Assembly (NCBI GenBank): GCA_001803465.1
Contig: MHDE01000005.1
Location: 17,310 to 56,075, forward strand
DNA: 38,766 nucleotides
Origin: Microgenomates group bacterium RIFCSPHIGHO2_01_FULL_45_11
Lineage (GTDB): Bacteria > Patescibacteriota > Microgenomatia > UBA1400 > 2-01-FULL-45-11
Direction of reading: 5' to 3'
The translations under genes were made by a program, and so were the position numbers. Positions 3,115 to 36,761 of the stretch are shown here, in pieces. The number at the start of each line of letters is the position of its first letter. Position 1 is the first letter of the stretch. The notes beneath the pieces were generated by a model. The model was not told the DNA's origin. It did no database searches and saw only the letters and a program-made list of their open reading frames with translations.

Positions 3115-5235
3115 ATGTTCGACACCCTGCTTTTGAAGTTGCCTCGCGACACCGAAGTCACCCCGGAAATGGCCAAAAATTTTTTGGCTGGCGTCAGTGA
3201 AGTGGCCAGCCGACCAGGACTCATCAAGCATCTTCTCGGCCAGCGGCCGGTACCTTTAGCCTTAGAAATTATTAGTTTTCACCAGCAAATTCAATTTACT
3301 ATTACCTGCGGTCAAGCCATTACCGAATTTGTCAAAACCCAACTCCAGTCTAATTACCCCCTGGTGGTCGTCGAAACCATCGCCGACCCCCTCCTAAATA
3401 TCGCCCCCGTCTCTGTCGGCAGACTCTCTCTGGCTACAGCCAATTATTATCCCTTGAGTACCGCCAAAGACTTCCGCGACCTTGATCCCTTAGCTTCGGT
3501 ACTTTCGGTCATGGCCAAAGCCGAAGCCGATGAGGTAATGATGGTCCAACTGGCTCTGGCAAAAGCCGGCAGTAACTGGCAACATCATGGTCAATCGGCC
3601 ATTGATAAAGGTCGGCCGGGAGAGAAACCCGAACAAACTAAGGCCCTGCCCGAACAACAACTTATCAGAGATAAAATTTCCTTTCCCGGTTATTATTTCA
3701 CTCTTCTATTGGCAGCCACCCACAAATCTCGTCTGCGCGAATTGGCCAGCGCTTTTCAGGTCTTTAGCCGCGCCGGGGGCAACCGTCTTTCCTTATCGGT
3801 GCCCCTCTTTAGTAAGCGAAAATTGCTTCACGACCTCCAGGGTAGACGAGCGGTCGGTAAACAAGTCTTAAATATCGACGAGTTAGCCACTATTTGGCAC
3901 TTGCCCGGAGAAAAAATCAAAGTCACCGGTATTGCCTGGGGCAGTGCGATTCTGTCCGAAGCCCCGGAAAATCTGCCCTTGGCTGAAGGCAAGACAGAAG
4001 CAGAAAAAGCCACCATCAACTTTTTTGCCAAAACTGTTTTTAAAAACAAGGACGCCGTCTTTGGTATCAAAGACGCCGATCGCCGCCGTCACCTTTGGTC
4101 TATCGGCAAAACCGGTACCGGTAAATCCACCCTTATTGCCAACATGGCCATCGACGACTTCAAAAAGGGGAGAGGAGTCACTGTTATCGACCCCCACGGC
4201 GACCTTTCCGACATTCTTCTCGATTATATCCCGAGCCACCGGGTCAACGACGTCATCTACTTAAACCCGGCTGACAAAGACTACACTGTCACCATCAATC
4301 CGTTGGAAGTCGCCAGTAGGGAAGAGCGGGAATTAGTGGTTTCTGGCATTGTCGCCATTTTCCACAAACTCTACGGCTACTCCTGGGGACCACGCTTGGA
4401 ATATATCTTAAGAAATTGTTTGTTGACCTTGACGGAAGCGTCCGACTCTACTCTGGGAGACGTGATTAAGCTTTTGACCGACTTTAAGTTTCGTCAAAAA
4501 GTCGTCGACACCATCAGCGACACCGTCATGAAACAATATTGGCTGGTCGAGTATGCCCAAATGCCAGAAAGACTTCGCCAAGAGGCCATCGCTCCCATCT
4601 TAAACAAAGTCGGCCAATTTGTCGGCTCGCCCCTGATCCGCTCGGTCATCGGCTCACCTAAATCTTCCGTCAGCATTGATGCTGTCATAAACGAAGGCAA
4701 AATCCTCATCGCCAATCTCTCCCAGGGAAGGTTAGGCGAAGACAACGGTGCCCTACTTGGGGCCATGCTCATCACTAAGTTTCAGCTGGCTTCCATGCGT
4801 CGGGTCAATGTGCCAGAAGAACAAAGGCGGGACTTTTACCTTTATGTAGACGAGTTTCAAAATTTCGCCACCCTGTCTTTTGTCAAAATTCTCTCCGAGG
4901 CCAGAAAATACCGCTTGAATTTAATGATGGCCAATCAATACATCGCCCAAATTCCCGAAGAAATTATCAAGGCAATCTTAGGCAACGTCGGCAGCTTAAT
5001 AACCTTTACCGTCGGCGCATCCGACGCTTTTCTTTTAAAGCGCGAGTTTTCCGAGGTTTTCTCCGAGTCTGACCTCGTTAACTTGGAGAACTACCAAATT
5101 GCCGTGAAGTTAATGATTGACGCCCACGCCAGCCGTCCCTTCCTGGCTCACACTTTGCCTTTGCCAGTCTCCAAAAACCAAAACCGTGACAAAGTCATCC
5201 GTGTCTCCCGAGAACGCTATTCCAAAAAAAAGTAA
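3115..5235 (+). CDS. TraD/VirD4/TrwB-like (type IV coupling protein-like, HerA/FtsK superfamily) P-loop ATPase with a soluble N-terminal domain of unknown type
   Basis: Motifs seen are Walker A GKTGTGKST (4105-4131), VIDPHGDL, Walker B-like FYLYVDEFQNF (~4840-4866) and ARKYRLNLMMANQ. The first ~320 aa contain no hydrophobic TM segment. Confidence 0.85.
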   Translation: MFDTLLLKLPRDTEVTPEMAKNFLAGVSEVASRPGLIKHLLGQRPVPLALEIISFHQQIQFTITCGQAITEFVKTQLQSNYPLVVVETIADPLLNIAPVSVGRLSLATANYYPLSTAKDFRDLDPLASVLSVMAKAEADEVMMVQLALAKAGSNWQHHGQSAIDKGRPGEKPEQTKALPEQQLIRDKISFPGYYFTLLLAATHKSRLRELASAFQVFSRAGGNRLSLSVPLFSKRKLLHDLQGRRAVGKQVLNIDELATIWHLPGEKIKVTGIAWGSAILSEAPENLPLAEGKTEAEKATINFFAKTVFKNKDAVFGIKDADRRRHLWSIGKTGTGKSTLIANMAIDDFKKGRGVTVIDPHGDLSDILLDYIPSHRVNDVIYLNPADKDYTVTINPLEVASREERELVVSGIVAIFHKLYGYSWGPRLEYILRNCLLTLTEASDSTLGDVIKLLTDFKFRQKVVDTISDTVMKQYWLVEYAQMPERLRQEAIAPILNKVGQFVGSPLIRSVIGSPKSSVSIDAVINEGKILIANLSQGRLGEDNGALLGAMLITKFQLASMRRVNVPEEQRRDFYLYVDEFQNFATLSFVKILSEARKYRLNLMMANQYIAQIPEEIIKAILGNVGSLITFTVGASDAFLLKREFSEVFSESDLVNLENYQIAVKLMIDAHASRPFLAHTLPLPVSKNQNRDKVIRVSRERYSKKK

Positions 5236-25932: not shown

Positions 25933-27432
25933 ATGGCTAAAGCTACGGTTAAAACTCCCTCCTTTCATCAGTTACTTAATCAGGATAAAGGCGAAGCCTA
26001 TCTAAAAAAAATTTTACCCCAGACCCCGACAGCTAAAAACCACTGGTTCTCACGCTGGTATCAGGAAACGGGGGAGTTTGGCGAAATTTACCCCAGTCAA
26101 GGCTTATTAAAGACTCCCTACGATTTTATCGATTCGGTCGGCAAAGTCCTTCTGGCTGAAGAAGAATTAGTAAAAACCTTGTCAAAACGCCATTTTCTGC
26201 TCACTTTGTTTAATCATCCTGACCGCCTTTCTGCTCTAAAAAAAGTTGATAAGGAAAAATTTATTGCCCCATCCCGGGTTGATTGTCCGGCCATAGATTA
26301 CGCTCAAAAACAGGGCCGGTCTCTTTCTGTCCGCGACCTTGGTACCACCATCCTCGGTACCGACCAACCCCGCGTCAGTCGCCGCGCCCTGTTAGCCACT
26401 GGCCCCTTTGTTAAAATCGGCCAGTTTGGCAGACATCCTTTTGTCGGTTCGGAAATGCCGGATATTTTCGGTAGCGCTGCGGCCCTGGCCACTATGGCTG
26501 CTTGTCACTGCCTCACCACTGTTCCCCGAAACGGCATTTTTTCTGACTTAAGGCGGCAATCAGACTTAGTCAAAGCCGTCTTCGCTTGGTTATCGGAGGA
26601 AGAAATCTTGGCTGGCCGCAGCGACAAAAGTTGGTTACTGAACCGGTGGCGCAGGAACCTCATGGTGGCTCTCGAGCCCCAGTTACCGCAAGCGGCCAAA
26701 AGAGCCGAAATGGCCTATAAAAATGGGGTGCGCGCCTTCCGCATTTACTCGCCCGAGCCGGGCACCGATGCCATCAAAGTAGTTAAGTCGCTCCGTCGTC
26801 TCTTCGGGGCAGATGTCGAAATTTTTGTTGGTCAGGTAGCTACCGTCAACCAAGCCCAGTCTTTCCAGTCAGTCGGCGCCGACGGCCTCTATGTCGGCAT
26901 TGGCGGCGGCGGCCGTTGTATCACCGGTGTTCGGAGCGGTTCGGTCATCGATTGGCCGGAACTGGTCTGGCAGCTACGGGGAAAAATATCACTACCGATA
27001 ATTGTCCAGGGCGGCGCCAGCGACCACATCGCTGTTACTCTCCTCTTCGGAGCCACCGGTATCGGCGTTTCCCGCATTGCCGGCGGCGGCACTATCGAAT
27101 CACCCGGAGGTTTACTCTATCTGGTCGATGCCAAAAATCAGTGGTTCAAACCCTATGGTGGCGAAGCCTCGGCCCGGACTAAATTCCTCGACAAAAAGAT
27201 GTTACCGTTTGGCATTCCTGCCTTTGTCGAGGGTGAAACTACCCGAGCGCTCAAAAGCTTTATGCCCTATATCGTTCCCACCCTTGCCTTTAATATCTTT
27301 CTTCTGCTTGAAGACACTATTCTTTCTTTGGTTTTTCGGGGGGTAAAAACCATCAGTCAATTGCAAGCCCTAAACCCGTCACCGCTGCGCCTCTTAACCG
27401 CTAGCGGTTTATACCAGCAAAACACTCACTGA
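25933..27432 (+). CDS. IMP dehydrogenase/GMP reductase-family TIM-barrel protein with long N-terminal extension
   Basis: Family-like stretches are PFVGSEMPDIFGSAAALATMA, the catalytic-loop-like VGIGGGGRCITGV and IIVQGGASDHIAVTLLFGATGIGVS. Confidence 0.7.
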   Translation: MAKATVKTPSFHQLLNQDKGEAYLKKILPQTPTAKNHWFSRWYQETGEFGEIYPSQGLLKTPYDFIDSVGKVLLAEEELVKTLSKRHFLLTLFNHPDRLSALKKVDKEKFIAPSRVDCPAIDYAQKQGRSLSVRDLGTTILGTDQPRVSRRALLATGPFVKIGQFGRHPFVGSEMPDIFGSAAALATMAACHCLTTVPRNGIFSDLRRQSDLVKAVFAWLSEEEILAGRSDKSWLLNRWRRNLMVALEPQLPQAAKRAEMAYKNGVRAFRIYSPEPGTDAIKVVKSLRRLFGADVEIFVGQVATVNQAQSFQSVGADGLYVGIGGGGRCITGVRSGSVIDWPELVWQLRGKISLPIIVQGGASDHIAVTLLFGATGIGVSRIAGGGTIESPGGLLYLVDAKNQWFKPYGGEASARTKFLDKKMLPFGIPAFVEGETTRALKSFMPYIVPTLAFNIFLLLEDTILSLVFRGVKTISQLQALNPSPLRLLTASGLYQQNTH

Positions 27433-27550
27433 AAATAATTAATCTGTAAATACAAAGTTTTTATCTGACGAGTCCTATCGCGAGTTTTCCCTCAAACACC
27501 CAAGGTGACCCCTTTGTGGACATCCCTACCAACTCACCCGCTTATTCGAG

Positions 27551-27724
27551 CCTGGAAGAAAACCAAGAGCGTTAGCTCTTGGATGAATTCCAGGCAGGAC
27601 GTCAAACGTCCTAGCCACGTTAGACGTGGCAGAACATTACGTCAGTAACATCGGCCAAGTCAGACTTGGCGTAGATATACTTCTCCCCGACATAATGTCG
27701 GGGAATACCACGGGCGTCAGCCCG
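27551..27724. repeat. Array of seven consecutive short hairpins (stems 4-8 bp, loops 3-4 nt)
   Basis: H1 is cctggaa/ttccagg enclosing ccaagagc-gtta-gctcttgg. H2 is aggacgt-caa-acgtcct. H3 is gccacgt-tag-acgtggc. H4 is ttac-gtca-gtaa. H5 is gccaagt-cag-acttggc. H6 is ccccgaca-taa-tgtcgggg. H7 is cgggc-gtca-gcccg. Confidence 0.85.
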
Positions 27725-27851
27725 GGGAAGTTTATTTTGATAGCATTTCGTAAATTAATTGACCTTCTCGTTATCATATTCATTATTTCAAGATACTAAT
27801 AATTTCTACCTTAGCGAAACATAAACCGTTAAAGTTTTTACTTTCTCCTCA

Positions 27852-27880
27852 TTGTTCATTACTTCTAGTTGTGTTAGAAT
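27852..27880 (+). promoter_or_regulatory. Candidate sigma70-type promoter for the rpsF operon
   Basis: The elements are ttgttc (27852-27857), a 17-nt spacer and tagaat (27875-27880), with TG at -15/-14. This implies a 5' UTR of about 200 nt. Confidence 0.3.
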
Positions 27881-28089
27881 CACGGCCAGACTAAACGCAA
27901 ACTCATTTTTAAATTGAAGTTGCCATTAACGTGTACTACCCCGAAGTATCAAGATTTACGCTTGACCGCCTCTTGATGAAACGGCTGCTCGCCGTCAGCG
28001 ATTTAACTGAGCTCATCGTCAAAGTCTTGTCAAAGGGAATAGGTAGCCTTTGTAAAATCTGATGCCAAGTGGTAGAAGTAAGGAATAGC

Positions 28090-28368
28090 GTGAACCAATA
28101 CGAACTAACGATTATCGTTCCTGCGACGGCCGAGTCGGTGGCCAGCCTAAAAGAAGTCATAAAAAAGTTGATTACCGCCTTCAAAGGCAAAATTATTGAA
28201 GAGATGGACTGGGGCGAGCGTTCCTTAGCCTACGCCATTGCCAAATACGACAAGGGTTTCTATCTGCATTTTCTGGTAGAATTGCCTCAGGCGGCAGTCA
28301 ACGACCTTGAAAAGAAGGTTCGTCAACAGAAGGGGATTATTCGATCATTACTGGTCAAGAAACAATGA
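28090..28368 (+). CDS. rpsF: 30S ribosomal protein S6
   Basis: It starts at GTG 28090 after the SD aaggaa and begins (M)NQYELTIIV, typical of S6. It is followed by ssb and rpsR. Confidence 0.9.
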   Translation: MNQYELTIIVPATAESVASLKEVIKKLITAFKGKIIEEMDWGERSLAYAIAKYDKGFYLHFLVELPQAAVNDLEKKVRQQKGIIRSLLVKKQ

Positions 28369-28499
28369 AGCTTCCGGACGTTTCGGCCGGAAAGGCCAGA
28401 CATCCGGGGTTTTACCCAACGTATTTCACGAAAGGGGATAAATTAAAGCTTGGATTCTTCTAACTATCAATTAGTCTAGGTTTAGAAAGAGGGGAAATT

Positions 28500-29039
28500 A
28501 TGGCAGCCCGTTCATTAAATAAAGTTTTGTTAATAGGTAATCTTACCAGAGATCCGGAATTGCGCTATACGCCTCAAGGCACGCCTGTTTGCACCTTTGG
28601 TCTAGCCACCAACCGAACCTGGACACCCACGGACAGCAACGAAAAACAGGAAGAGACAGAGTTTCACCGCATTGTGGCTTGGTCCAAGTTGGCCGAGATT
28701 TGCGCCCAACTTCTTTACAAAGGCAGGAAAGTTTTTGTCGAAGGCAGATTACAAACCAGAAAGTGGCAAACTGCCGACGGCCATGATCGGGAGACCACCG
28801 AGGTGGTCATCGACAACATGATTGCTCTGGGTGCTCCCAAAGGCGTCCCCGTGGCCGAGGAAGAATACGAAATGGTCCCCGAAACCGCTGTCACCCAACC
28901 GGCGCCGGAGGCAGAGGTTAGCCAACCGATCACTCCCGCTCCCGCACAGACTAAAGTTAAGAGAGGAAAAAAGGGCAAAAGTGACAGTGATGGCACTCCA
29001 GCCGATCAAGACGTTCCGGCCGACGACATTCCCTTTTAA
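28500..29039 (+). CDS. ssb: Single-stranded DNA-binding protein
   Basis: It has an OB fold ([22 protein letters not shown]), an acidic tail and the terminal DDIPF. Confidence 0.95.
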
Positions 29040-29396: not shown

Positions 29397-29523
29397 ACTG
29401 ACAATAATCTTAAACATTATGTGTTGTTAACTGCGCCAAGTCAGACTTGGCTGCGCTCACTGCCAATAATCTAACGATTATGTCTTGTTCATTACTTTCA
29501 CTGCCAATAATCTAACGATTATG
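29397..29523 (+). repeat. Tandem triplication of the ctpA start region
   Basis: cactgccaataatctaacgattatg is exactly repeated at 29458-29482 and 29499-29523. A degenerate copy, actgacaataatcttaaacattatg, lies at 29397-29421. The hairpin gccaagtcagacttggc (29434-29450) is inserted between copies 1 and 2. Confidence 0.85.
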
Positions 29524-34422: not shown

Positions 34423-35631
34423 TTACGCGGCTGTTAGTAGCCGAACAACATCAGCTGATTTTAGGAGTTTCTCTTCTCCGGTTTTCATGTCTTTGAGTTT
34501 GACTACATTACTCTTTGCTTCATCTGGGCCGATGACAACGACATACGGAATGCCTTTTCTGTCTGCATATTTGAGTTGTTTGCCCAATTTGTCGGCAATG
34601 GGATAGAGTTCGGTGTTAATTCCGGCCTGGCGTAATTGTTTTGCCACCTGCAAAGTTTGGTCTTGTAGGTCGTTGGAAAAGAAAATGACGAGCACTCGGC
34701 TTACCGACCGAGAAGGGATAAGACCGAACTGGTCAGCAGCTTCTACGGTGCGGTCAAAGCCGTAGGCGATACCGGTGGCAGGTATGTCCTGCCCCGTCAG
34801 ACGCTGCATCATGCCATCATAGCGTTCCCCGCCGCCGACAGATCCGACGGTATAGTCTTCGATGACAATTTCCCATATCGGCCCTTGGGAATAGGAGAAT
34901 GAACGGGCCAGTGTCGGTTCAAAGCGGTAAAACTCTTTCGAAAAGCCAGCATTTTCCAGATACGAGGTGATTATTCGTATTGTTTCGTCTGGCTTGATGT
35001 TTTGGATATAATCCAAATATTTTACTGCCTGATTTTTATCAATGCCTTTATCTACCATATCGGTGATAACTCCCTGCCGGCCAATTTTTTTAAGTTTGTC
35101 AATGGCAACAATAGCGGGGTAGGGGATGTCTTTCATGAGATCGCGGTTATTAAAGACTATTATCGGTTTTTTGAAGCCAATTTTTAAGTAAGTATCGAGG
35201 TTAACGGCCATTACTTCGGCGTCAGCAGTCGGATCTTTGAATCCAAAAATATCGACATCAAATTGGGTGAATTCCCGGTATCTGCCTTTTTGAGGTTTTT
35301 CCGCCCGGAAGACATTTTGGAATTGGTAACGGCGGAAGGGGAAAACGATCTTATTTAGGTTATTGCCGACAAAACGGCAGGTAGGAACGGTTTGGTCGTA
35401 GCGCAAAGCCACGTTACGACCACCCTGATCTTCAAACTTGAAGAAGAGTTTTTCATCTTCACCTATTTCACCTTCAAACAATCCCAGCGGTTCCAAGGTT
35501 GGGGTCTCGATGGGTTCGTATCCGAAGGATTCGGCGACTTCTACCATAATGTTTTTAACCCATTGGCGTTTTTTGGCATCATCTGGCAAAAGGTCCCTAA
35601 AGCCTTTGAGCGGCTGAATAGTTTTCTTCAT
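34423..35631 (-). CDS. hisS: Histidyl-tRNA synthetase
   Basis: It begins PLKGFRDLLP, carries class II motifs (RYDQTVP, FRAEKPQKGRYREFTQ, GGGERYD) and ends in an anticodon-binding domain. Confidence 0.93.
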   Translation of the reverse strand: MKKTIQPLKGFRDLLPDDAKKRQWVKNIMVEVAESFGYEPIETPTLEPLGLFEGEIGEDEKLFFKFEDQGGRNVALRYDQTVPTCRFVGNNLNKIVFPFRRYQFQNVFRAEKPQKGRYREFTQFDVDIFGFKDPTADAEVMAVNLDTYLKIGFKKPIIVFNNRDLMKDIPYPAIVAIDKLKKIGRQGVITDMVDKGIDKNQAVKYLDYIQNIKPDETIRIITSYLENAGFSKEFYRFEPTLARSFSYSQGPIWEIVIEDYTVGSVGGGERYDGMMQRLTGQDIPATGIAYGFDRTVEAADQFGLIPSRSVSRVLVIFFSNDLQDQTLQVAKQLRQAGINTELYPIADKLGKQLKYADRKGIPYVVVIGPDEAKSNVVKLKDMKTGEEKLLKSADVVRLLTAA

Positions 35632-35686
35632 TTCGTTCCTTTCACTTAGATACTTGTTAGTTTAACATTGTTTCTTGTCAAGAGTA

Positions 35687-35720
35687 GGGGATAACCGGCC
35701 GTACGCGCCGGTATATCCCC
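35687..35720 (-). terminator. Strong 13-bp hairpin after the 147-aa ORF (no U-tract)
   Basis: On the minus strand the sequence is ggggatat-accggc-gcgtacg-gccggt-tatcccc. It is followed by a perfect TTGACA (plus-strand 35676-35681) upstream of hisS. Confidence 0.4.
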
Positions 35721-35726
35721 GTATCA

Positions 35727-36170
35727 TTAGTGAATGCCCACGAAATCATTAGGGGCATTGATCCAGTCAAGTCCGTTAGCAAAGTCCTTATCAATCAGAG
35801 CATACCCCGGGCGTTCTCCAACCACAAATTGAATATCCTCACTATCAGCAGGCGTTGATAGATATTCCAGTGGTTGATCGGGTACATAAGGTCTTAACTT
35901 CAAACCACTTCCAGGTATTAAGGTTTGGGCAGCTATTTCCGGAAACTGTCTCGTTAGAACATTAACTGTTTCTTGAGAGACATAAAGCCTGCCCTTACCG
36001 TTGGCCAAGGCCAGGGCATCGGGTAGGGTATTGAGTGATTCGTCCCAATAGATATTAACCGGCCGGTTTGCCCATCTTGTCAGGACAGAGACTTTTAGCA
36101 CAGCGGTTGTCTGCCTTAACCCAGGTTCTTCAGGGTTCGGCAACCGATCAATTGTCTCAATCTTTTTCAT
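35727..36170 (-). CDS. Hypothetical protein (147 aa)
   Basis: ATG 36170 lies 8 nt after the SD gaaaggaggtga. The ORF-track GTG start at 36179 falls inside that SD. I recognise no family. Confidence 0.6.
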   Translation of the reverse strand: MKKIETIDRLPNPEEPGLRQTTAVLKVSVLTRWANRPVNIYWDESLNTLPDALALANGKGRLYVSQETVNVLTRQFPEIAAQTLIPGSGLKLRPYVPDQPLEYLSTPADSEDIQFVVGERPGYALIDKDFANGLDWINAPNDFVGIH

Positions 36171-36230
36171 TTCATTCACCTCCTTTCTCTCAAGTAAGGA
36201 ACTTCCTTACAAGGATGGTCCTTGTTAGAT

Positions 36231-36443
36231 TTATAAATCGGCAGCTACCCCGGCATCGCTATCGTCTCTTGGTTGCTCGGCGGATAATTGAGAAACGACG
36301 GTAAGTGCCGCCAGTTCTTCAGGCTTTAGTAATTCGCCCAAAGCCCCGGCACCTTCATCGTCTCTGGCTTGGAAAGCTTTGCCAGTCGTTGGATCAACGG
36401 CCAGCTTGATTACGCTGCTCATTGCTTCTTGTTCATTGTTCAT
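36231..36443 (-). CDS. Hypothetical acidic small protein (70 aa)
   Basis: It is preceded by the same strong SD, gaaaggaggtga. I recognise no family. Confidence 0.55.
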   Translation of the reverse strand: MNNEQEAMSSVIKLAVDPTTGKAFQARDDEGAGALGELLKPEELAALTVVSQLSAEQPRDDSDAGVAADL

Positions 36444-36598
36444 TACGGCTCACCTCCTTTCTTCTATCATGGTTGCTAAAAAGCAAAAAACTGTACAATC
36501 CGTCCTTCGTAGCTCGGCCTGGCACTAACTGCTTATTCAGTCGTATTGCCAGCCGGTTACTACGGAGGATTATGCGCTATCAGAATCTTAAGGTGCAC

Positions 36599-36623
36599 AA
36601 AAAAACCTCCGGTTACGGAGGTT
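36599..36623 (-). terminator. Intrinsic terminator, candidate attenuator
   Basis: On the minus strand the sequence is aacctccg-taac-cggaggtt followed by U7 (plus-strand A-run 36599-36605). Confidence 0.65.
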
Positions 36624-36649
36624 GTCACTGCCTGTTAAATTATTAGAAT

Positions 36650-36724
36650 TCAGCCACTACAAACCACAACCTCCGCTCGAAGGTCGTGATGATGAACGTT
36701 GGCATTACTACGAAGTCGATTCAT
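36650..36724 (-). CDS. Candidate 24-codon leader peptide MNRLRSNANVHHHDLRAEVVVCSG*
   Basis: ATG is at 36724-36722. Three consecutive His codons (CAT CAT CAC) lie at 36694-36686, and TGA at 36652-36650. There is no SD, so the mRNA would have to be leaderless from the predicted promoter. Confidence 0.3.
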   Translation of the reverse strand: MNRLRSNANVHHHDLRAEVVVCSG

Positions 36725-36732
36725 AAGTTGCA

Positions 36733-36761
36733 ATGTTACCAGTCCTAAATAATTCTGTCAA
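36733..36761 (-). promoter_or_regulatory. Candidate promoter (perfect TTGACA, 17-nt spacer, TAACAT)
   Basis: On the minus strand, ttgaca is at 36761-36756 and taacat at 36738-36733. The predicted TSS is about 36727-36725, essentially at the leader ATG. Confidence 0.35.

Follow-up and report, generated by a model that had tools for sequence, protein, structure and literature searches.

The DNA studied here, referred to below as the window, is a stretch of 38,766 nt from contig MHDE01000005.1 (positions 17,310 to 56,075 of the forward strand; assembly GCA_001803465.1) of a Microgenomates-type genome of the candidate phyla radiation (CPR, or Patescibacteria). Its minus strand carries, in this order, genes for an M24 peptidase (38508-37390), the orphan proteins p68, p88, p70 and p147, a histidyl-tRNA synthetase (HisRS; hisS), an EamA transporter, ribosomal protein L31 (rpmE) and a release factor. 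The subject of this analysis is an element upstream of p70 (36599-36761), which the original prediction had described as a candidate histidine leader-peptide attenuator. The first gene 3' of this element is p70 (36231-36443); it is followed by p147 (35727-36170) and by hisS (34423-35631), which was identified with Pfam, encodes 402 amino acids and is the conserved last gene of the gene strings headed by the leader. All positions refer to the window and, unless noted otherwise, to its minus strand.

The leader begins with a promoter that had been proposed to consist of TTGACA (36756-36761), a 17-nt spacer and TAACAT (36733-36738). It is present in exactly this form, and a TG at 36741-36740 turns the second hexamer into an extended -10 element (TGgTAACAT, 36733-36741) ending 8 nt 5' of an ATG. 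With a score of 10/12 the promoter is among the four best promoter-like sites in 19 kb, and the -35 box stands at the same distance in the homologous leaders of the related CPR loci L003, L138, L213, L214, L258 and L284. The open reading frame (ORF) of 24 codons (MNRLRSNANVHHHDLRAEVVVCSG; 36650-36724 including the stop codon) likewise runs as predicted, from the ATG at 36724-36722 to a TGA at 36652-36650, and its codons 11 to 13 are the histidine codons CAT CAT CAC (36686-36694), the last of which opens region 1 (36679-36690). Region 1 is the 5' strand of the anti-antiterminator helix 1:2. This helix had been described as 8 bp with two G-U pairs; it exists but is longer, comprising 12 bp (36690-36679/36674-36663) with three G.U pairs, a GAGC loop and a free energy of -16.3 kcal/mol. 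Region 2 (36663-36675) can pair either with region 1 or with region 3 (36616-36625). The perfect complementarity of regions 2 and 3 was confirmed (36675-36666 with 36625-36616; 10 nt, 100%, -15.5 kcal/mol), as was the double role of region 3, which forms the antiterminator with region 2 or serves as the 5' arm of the terminator with region 4. The intrinsic terminator (36599-36623) has an 8-bp GC-rich stem (AACCUCCG/CGGAGGUU) with a UAAC loop (hairpin 36623-36604) and a run of seven U residues extending to 36599. At -12.1 kcal/mol it is among the three best terminators in the window, and it lies 155 nt 5' of p70.

The combination of these elements is unusual for the window. Paired with the 5' arm of the terminator, the 97-nt leader gives a duplex of -20.6 kcal/mol that only 6 of 5000 dinucleotide shuffles reached, and the 11 other terminator-like sites of the window have no upstream complement of this kind (z -4.5 here; -1.3 to +1.4 for the others). 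Six runs of three CAY codons are found on the two strands, but only that of the leader is read as HHH in an ATG-initiated frame; in the six-frame background HHH accounts for 6 of 521 homo-triplets. Folding gave P(1:2)=0.999 once region 2 has been transcribed, P(2:3)=0.90 with only regions 1 to 3 present and P(1:2+3:4)=0.87 in the full transcript. When a ribosome-sized stretch centred on the His codons, and with it region 1, was masked, helix 2:3 became the minimum free energy structure. Helix 2:3 is thus competitive, as the proposed attenuator demands, and the leader behaves in silico as a balanced switch.

The spacing of the elements is also informative. Region 2 starts 9-10 nt past the last His codon, and the stop codon of the leader follows 10 nt past region 2. 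A ribosome holds its mRNA single-stranded to positions +11 to +16 counted from the P site. For a ribosome whose A site contains His codon 2 or 3, this reach ends at 36683-36676, inside or just past region 1 and short of region 2 (36675). The modelled geometry fits a sensor of stalled ribosomes, in which a paused ribosome would cover region 1 and leave region 2 free.

The strongest argument comes from other CPR genomes. A scan that was blind to the amino acid (2.28 Mb, both strands) looked for a -10 box followed after 5-10 nt by an ATG-initiated small ORF of 8-45 codons with any homo-tripeptide and by a terminator. It returned nine hits, and in five of them the tripeptide was HHH (the window, L003, L103, L104 and L138). 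Each of the five has hisS downstream of it on its own strand; the leaders of L003, L103 and L104 are identical, so that the five hits represent three distinct sequences. Two pattern scans of species-representative genomes added L213, L214, L258, L243 and L284. An earlier search for three CAY codons within 1.5 kb upstream of hisS in relatives had found only runs within longer ORFs and outside the His frame. The true homologous leaders are situated 1.6-4.5 kb upstream of hisS, beyond the range of that search.

The members of this family share the arrangement TTGACA-16/17-TATAAT-8-ATG and ORFs of 21-26 codons (16 in L243), with HHH or HHHH at codons 10-15 in six CPR loci other than the window. 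The sequence CATCATCAC is identical in every member; its CAC opens helix 1:2 and is paired to a GUG of region 2. In every member region 2 is complementary to the 5' arm of the terminator. The corresponding duplex is strong in L003 (z -5.5), L214 (-5.3), L138 (-6.0), L213 (-9.8) and L258 (-6.5) and weaker in L243 (-2.1) and L284 (-1.6). In seven leaders the distance from region 2 to the stop codon is 10, 10, 10, 10, 9, 2 and 10 nt, and that from the stop codon to region 3 is 21, 22, 21, 22, 21, 33 and 21 nt. The helices themselves are lineage-specific: region 2 reads GGAGGUUGUG in the window, GGCGGGUGUAG in L003, AGCGGGGUGAU in L138, GGGAGUGCU in L213 and GGGUGCUGGUU in L284, and in every case regions 1 and 3 of the same leader match it. 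Automatic alignment of the leaders was too poor, so the helices were analysed sequence by sequence, and the argument from covariation rests on those individual folds. Read in this way, the family has a conserved architecture with compensatory change. The original prediction had named loss of the ORF or of the His codons in relatives as evidence against it; ORF, His codons and all three helices are kept in the six other CPR loci with near-identical spacing.

These data bear directly on the idea that the element is a product of chance, in which a duplicated terminator hairpin created the complementarity of regions 2 and 3 and an ORF with a His run arose by accident. Hairpins 1:2 and 3:4 do align over 29 nt (p ~0.01), Rfam yields no finding, and six runs of three His codons occur in the window. 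It is difficult, however, to see how accident could place ORF, His run, three-helix layout and spacing together at a syntenic position in six other CPR loci, or make HHH the tripeptide in five of nine hits of a scan that ignored the amino acid. Chance is strongly disfavoured, and we give it a very low probability.

Within the family the leader peptides have no conserved sequence other than HHH and the residues for which region 2 codes. This is relevant to another alternative, namely that the terminated transcript of ~125 nt acts mainly in trans as a small RNA, or that the 24-aa peptide is itself functional. The transcript has its own promoter and terminator, and trans functions of attenuator-derived small RNAs and leader peptides are known from Sinorhizobium (PMC6614838, PMC7298713). 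What is conserved, however, is the pairing geometry and the His codons rather than the peptide, and a role in trans would add to attenuation in cis, not replace it. As a substitute for attenuation it has hardly any probability.

Several observations made during the scans concern sequences that resemble the leader. The CPR leaders L003, L138, L213, L214, L258 and L209 share (T)AACACG in the 6-8 nt before TTGACA, where the window has GTTAAG; the shared motif could be an UP-like element or an operator. The pattern TTGACA-N16-18-TANNNT-N8-ATG...CATCATCAC is found in more than 119 genomes, ~10 times the random expectation. Dozens of these matches belong to Acidobacteriaceae/Terriglobia, with leaders such as MQIHRHHRHHHHHVTSV, and others to Dormibacterota, Chloroflexi, Ignavibacteria and Planctomycetes (L180-L259, e.g. 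L180 1768+, L192, L204 and L250). Those of L256, L236 and L227 lie directly 5' of hisS/hisZ-like genes. From these matches leaderless His leaders seem to be widespread. In Ruminococcus (L309 1429+, L310 1446+, L301) the matches contain tandem repeats of a unit of ~36 nt (GGTGCTCACCACCATAAAGGGCAGACTGAATTATTG), each encoding HHH. A glmS ribozyme was matched with 55.5 bits at L003 7619-7815 (minus strand) and L103 6619-6815 (minus strand), in a Paceibacterota genome that carries a member of the leader family.

The members of the family and the window have the order pepM24 ... leader ... hisS-eamA-rpmE in common. What stands between leader and hisS varies, and the loci can be arranged as a putative evolutionary series. 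L213 has a full his operon ending in hisS, with genes for HisG, HisD, a fusion of HisC with a phosphatase of the HAD type and a GNAT protein. Remnants are seen in L138 (HisG and an Asp/Glu racemase) and in L003 (an aromatic-amino-acid lyase and a 61-aa ORF). In L284 hisS is alone and starts ~90 nt past the terminator, and in the window p70 and p147 precede it. In L243 the leader heads hisG-hisD-hisC, and hisS was not found within the 8-kb locus examined. In the five lineages with a fully readable gene string hisS is the constant partner, and in the window it is the only His-related gene after the leader. By this comparison the most likely ancestor of the leader is the attenuator of a his biosynthesis operon with hisS as its last gene, as in L213. 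In the simplest history the biosynthetic genes would have been lost or replaced in several lineages, and the orphans p70 and p147 would now stand in their place in the window. The regulatory device would then have outlived the pathway it once served.

Such a history invites the suggestion that the element is a mere relic which persists without regulating anything, its terminator simply ending transcripts of p68-p88. After all, no gene of his biosynthesis follows the leader here, unlike in L213, L138 and L243; the terminator is the first one after p88, and the flanking genes are strict orphans. Yet the perfect -35 box, the extended -10 element, the open reading frame, HHH, the perfect 10-bp helix 2:3 and the U7 tract are all intact, and there is no other promoter-like site before p70. 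An identical sequence occurs on contig MHDF01000007.1 (GCA_001803475.1), and ~20 metagenome contigs of one population are 99.9-100% identical to the window. The sole single-nucleotide polymorphisms (SNPs) among them (36594, 36557 and 36541) are all just 3' of the terminator, so that the attenuator is free of SNPs in ~20 assemblies as against three in the next 60 nt, a difference that is not significant. On balance we regard a relic as improbable.

Leaders in relatives could not be traced through the flanking genes: a search of 5.8 billion proteins returned no homologue of p88, p147 or p70, with p70 retrieving only itself, and the alignment of orthologous intergenic regions failed for this reason. 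Phage records, PHROGs and PDB sequences gave no match either, and a metagenome scan for closer relatives of HisRS found none with more than 76% identity. There is no anomaly in base composition over the stretch of orphan genes, and the hairpin motif of the attenuator is not a genome-wide repeat. For p147 no family or structure was matched in Pfam, PHROGs or PDB, and an AlphaFold single-sequence model (mean predicted local distance difference test score, pLDDT, of 46) was too poor for a fold search. Two ideas about the orphans were dropped. A HutP-like RNA-binding antiterminator as the product of p147 is unsupported by any Pfam or PDB hit, and an origin of p70 and p147 as remnants of his genes can be set aside, since neither is significantly similar to the proteins encoded behind the leader in relatives.

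It might be considered a weakness that the leader ORF lacks a Shine-Dalgarno (SD) sequence. The absence, pointed out in the original prediction, is real, but it need not be a defect in this clade. An SD can be recognised in only ~12 of the 36 genes of the window, a -10 box stands 6-10 nt 5' of the ATG in several, and the distribution of -10-like hexamers over 324 genes of related CPR loci has a sharp maximum 6-9 nt upstream of the start codon. By this pattern leaderless mRNAs appear to be a normal gene architecture in the clade, and the leader ORF with its TAACAT 8 nt before the ATG fits it. The hisS genes of ~20 related CPR species that do not have the leader also look leaderless, with a consensus -10 box (mostly TATAAT) 6-8 nt before the ATG (L001, L006-L008, L010, L011, L015, L102, L109-L116 and L122-L132).

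Does the leader reach hisS? The original prediction had warned of a perfect -35 box belonging to hisS itself, and the matter is two-sided. It could be that a genuine His attenuator controls only p70 and p147 here, while hisS is transcribed from its own upstream promoter and escapes regulation by the leader. TTGACA (35681-35676) is indeed followed after 16 nt by TAACAA before hisS, TATAAT (L138) and TACAAT (L003 and L284) occur at the equivalent place, 17-22 nt before the hisS ATG, and a 13-bp GC hairpin (35720-35687) separates p147 from hisS. The promoter scan, on the other hand, found no site of at least 9/12 before hisS, and the hairpin has no U tract. The junction of p147 and hisS (35629-35745) is structured (z -5.9, 0 of 200 shuffles): the last codons of p147 (35745-35729) are predicted to pair around the hairpin with the SD and start of hisS (35646-35631), an arrangement that is sensible only on a shared transcript and suggests, as far as the fold can be trusted, translational coupling. 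Moreover no gene but hisS is shared by all the strings that a leader heads, and in L284 it alone follows the leader. Taken together, exclusive control of p70 and p147 is unlikely, though the least unlikely of the alternatives considered; we infer that hisS is co-transcribed with the leader, and it probably also has a basal expression of its own.

The amino acid composition of the three downstream proteins is in line with control by histidine. There is no His in p70, one in the 147 residues of p147 and none in the 402 of HisRS (~7.8 expected); together this is one His in 619 residues as compared with 1.93% in the other genes of the window. The near-absence of His would suit genes that are made while tRNA-His is uncharged. 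In a survey of the window hisS and the hisS genes of L001-L054, all 16 readable relatives, among them Clostridia and Bacteroidota from the same HisRS clade, had orthologues with no or one His. In terms of sequence, the His-free HisRS represents an extreme avoidance of the cognate amino acid that is a trait of the whole enzyme clade. The four orphan proteins p68, p88, p70 and p147 are all acidic and jointly contain one His in 373 residues.

The remainder of the 5' untranslated region of p70 (36444-36598) is also structured (z -3.4), in a manner specific to this genome, and contains a long hairpin (36573-36495). A mini-ORF of 12 codons runs from a GUG at 36598 to a UAG at 36560, with a perfect SD (GGAGG, 36610-36606) at a spacing of 7 nt. 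This SD is the 3' arm of the terminator (region 4) and would be exposed only in the antiterminated state. The first codons of the mini-ORF (CACCUU, 36595-36590) pair with the SD of p70 at 36456-36451; the population SNP A36594T breaks one of these pairs. p70 (36448-36461) and p147 (36176-36189) have the same unusually strong SD (AAAGGAGGTGA), in a window where most genes have none.

In our view the element is likely to be a classical leader-peptide attenuator of transcription, mediated by the ribosome and sensing histidine, on a predicted leaderless mRNA. This reading owes most to the recurrence of the device in at least five other CPR bacteria, where it occupies the corresponding genomic position ahead of hisS. 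Transcription would start from the TTGACA/TGgTAACAT promoter a few bases before the ATG, and a ribosome would translate the 24-codon leader. When charged tRNA-His is plentiful, the ribosome would pass regions 1 and 2 to the stop codon. Because this codon lies 10 nt past region 2, an undelayed ribosome should sit on region 2 while region 3 emerges, or else let helix 1:2 re-form behind it; in either case regions 3 and 4 could pair and RNA polymerase would terminate at the U7 tract (36599). When charged tRNA-His is scarce, the ribosome would pause while its A site holds His codon 2 or 3; its front edge would melt region 1 but not reach region 2. Region 2, now free, would pair with region 3 over 10 perfect base pairs, the terminator would not form, and transcription would continue into p70, p147 and probably hisS. 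The response to histidine is deduced from these sequence elements.

A number of points weigh against this interpretation. The run of regulatory codons is short, consisting of three His codons only, and the likeness of hairpins 1:2 and 3:4 could result from a local duplication just as well as from functional design. At equilibrium helix 2:3 is already favoured before region 4 has been transcribed, and basal termination would therefore be a matter of kinetics. The optimal spacing of 7 nt from the -10 element predicts a start at U36726, that is a 2-nt leader and not a 5'-terminal AUG. MAFFT and RNAalifold applied to the seven divergent leaders recovered only part of the terminator and neither helix 1:2 nor helix 2:3, and the leader was not found in ~55 of 65 CPR loci of relatives. 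hisS is 1.0 kb downstream of the leader behind a strong hairpin, and its recurrent -10-like box (TAACAA in the window) means that it may be served mainly by its own promoter. Finally, p88, p70 and p147 beside the leader lack homologues.

The hisL leaders of E. coli and Salmonella have a short ORF with consecutive His codons, helices 1:2, 2:3 and 3:4 and a terminator, and a stalled ribosome favours the antiterminator. Like hisL (Rfam His_leader, RF00514), the leader of the window has a His-codon ORF, three alternative helices and an intrinsic terminator. Unlike hisL, it has three His codons instead of seven, is leaderless rather than SD-led, has a peptide of 24 codons with the stop 10 nt past region 2, and is followed by orphans and hisS, not by hisG-hisI. 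RF00514 had no hit in the window at the gathering score or at E<=10, nor in L003 or L103; on the window both settings returned noise only (for example Phe_leader with 18.5 bits against a gathering score of 55). Supported by its sequence features, the leader appears to be a classical ribosome-mediated His attenuator in mechanism without an Rfam match. Leader-peptide attenuation as such is textbook knowledge, but none of the Rfam models detects the predicted CPR elements of the family described here.

An aminoacyl-tRNA synthetase operon under leader-peptide attenuation is known from E. coli, where the pheM leader with its cognate codons controls pheST. The window differs from it in amino acid and phylum, and pheM is SD-led with the synthetase genes directly after the leader. 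T-box leaders (RF00230) serve the same goal, more synthetase when charged tRNA is scarce, and follow the same terminator/antiterminator logic. The leader of the window, by contrast, has neither Stem I nor a specifier loop, its antiterminator is a perfect helix without a tRNA-binding bulge, and RF00230 gave no hit in the window at the gathering score or at E<=10. That the search has enough sensitivity for this clade is shown by a T-box which the same model detects in a related genome. This bona fide T-box (96 bits; L021 855-1102, plus strand) belongs to a Collierbacteria genome and lies upstream of genes for a 365-aa protein of no known family and a pyridoxal phosphate-dependent decarboxylase, ~3 kb before hisS. 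With a specifier UUA and a U as discriminator reader, both as judged by eye, it is probably not His-specific. It does indicate that terminator/antiterminator control exists in the group of relatives of the window genome.

The claim that leader-peptide attenuation linked to a HisRS locus is an undescribed arrangement was too strong. Naville and Gautheret (2010, PMC2965389) predicted His leader peptides in bacilli, ahead of hisZ and of a paralogue of hisS, and stressed the ease with which attenuators move between genes. Those leaders resemble the one in the window in combining a small ORF with His codons and a premature terminator ahead of a gene of the histidyl-tRNA synthetase family. They differ in belonging to another phylum and in showing no sequence similarity; they are not described as leaderless and lie directly upstream of the regulated gene. 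In mycobacteria leaderless small ORFs encoding polycysteine have been described, in which a stalled ribosome remodels the downstream RNA and unmasks a ribosome binding site (Canestrari et al., 10.1101/834739). They share with the window a leaderless first-cistron ORF and a run of cognate codons as the sensor. Their control is translational, however, whereas the competing structure in the window is an intrinsic terminator and control would be transcriptional. No report of leader-peptide attenuation in CPR/Patescibacteria was found in a literature search, and the leader family appears to be undescribed in these bacteria.

A more far-reaching interpretation can be offered, which we hold tentatively and regard as rather doubtful in its entirety. 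In an ultra-small and probably histidine-dependent CPR bacterium, the leader may have survived as the sensor of a histidine-biosynthesis operon that is itself lost, and would now couple the charging of tRNA-His to the expression of the lineage-specific, His-free proteins p70/p147 and of HisRS. p70 and p147 would then constitute a new histidine-starvation response, and the family would for the first time give evidence that the CPR use ribosome-coupled transcription control on leaderless mRNAs. The significance of the leader family lies in providing, at the level of sequence, an argument for coupled transcription and translation in uncultivated, ultra-small bacteria and for the use of leaderless mRNAs as sensors in the CPR. 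It also gives a functional handle on the orphans p70 and p147, which are predicted to be induced when charging of tRNA-His falls.

Three further features of the window are unconnected with the leader. Between a gene with an IMPDH domain and ssb there is a region of ~1 kb without a long ORF (27432-28500), for which Rfam found nothing; it contains, on the minus strand, a hairpin (27582-27563) that is among the three best terminator-like hairpins of the window and, like the terminator of the leader, has a UAAC loop. A direct repeat of ~25 nt (cactgccaataatctaacgatt) is present in two copies just 5' of the start of an S41 peptidase gene (29461-29520, plus strand). Lastly, a protein of 706 aa (3115-5235, plus strand) combines domains of a TraG/VirD4-type coupling protein with HerA-like domains, a hint that this small genome may encode a type IV secretion or conjugation-like system.

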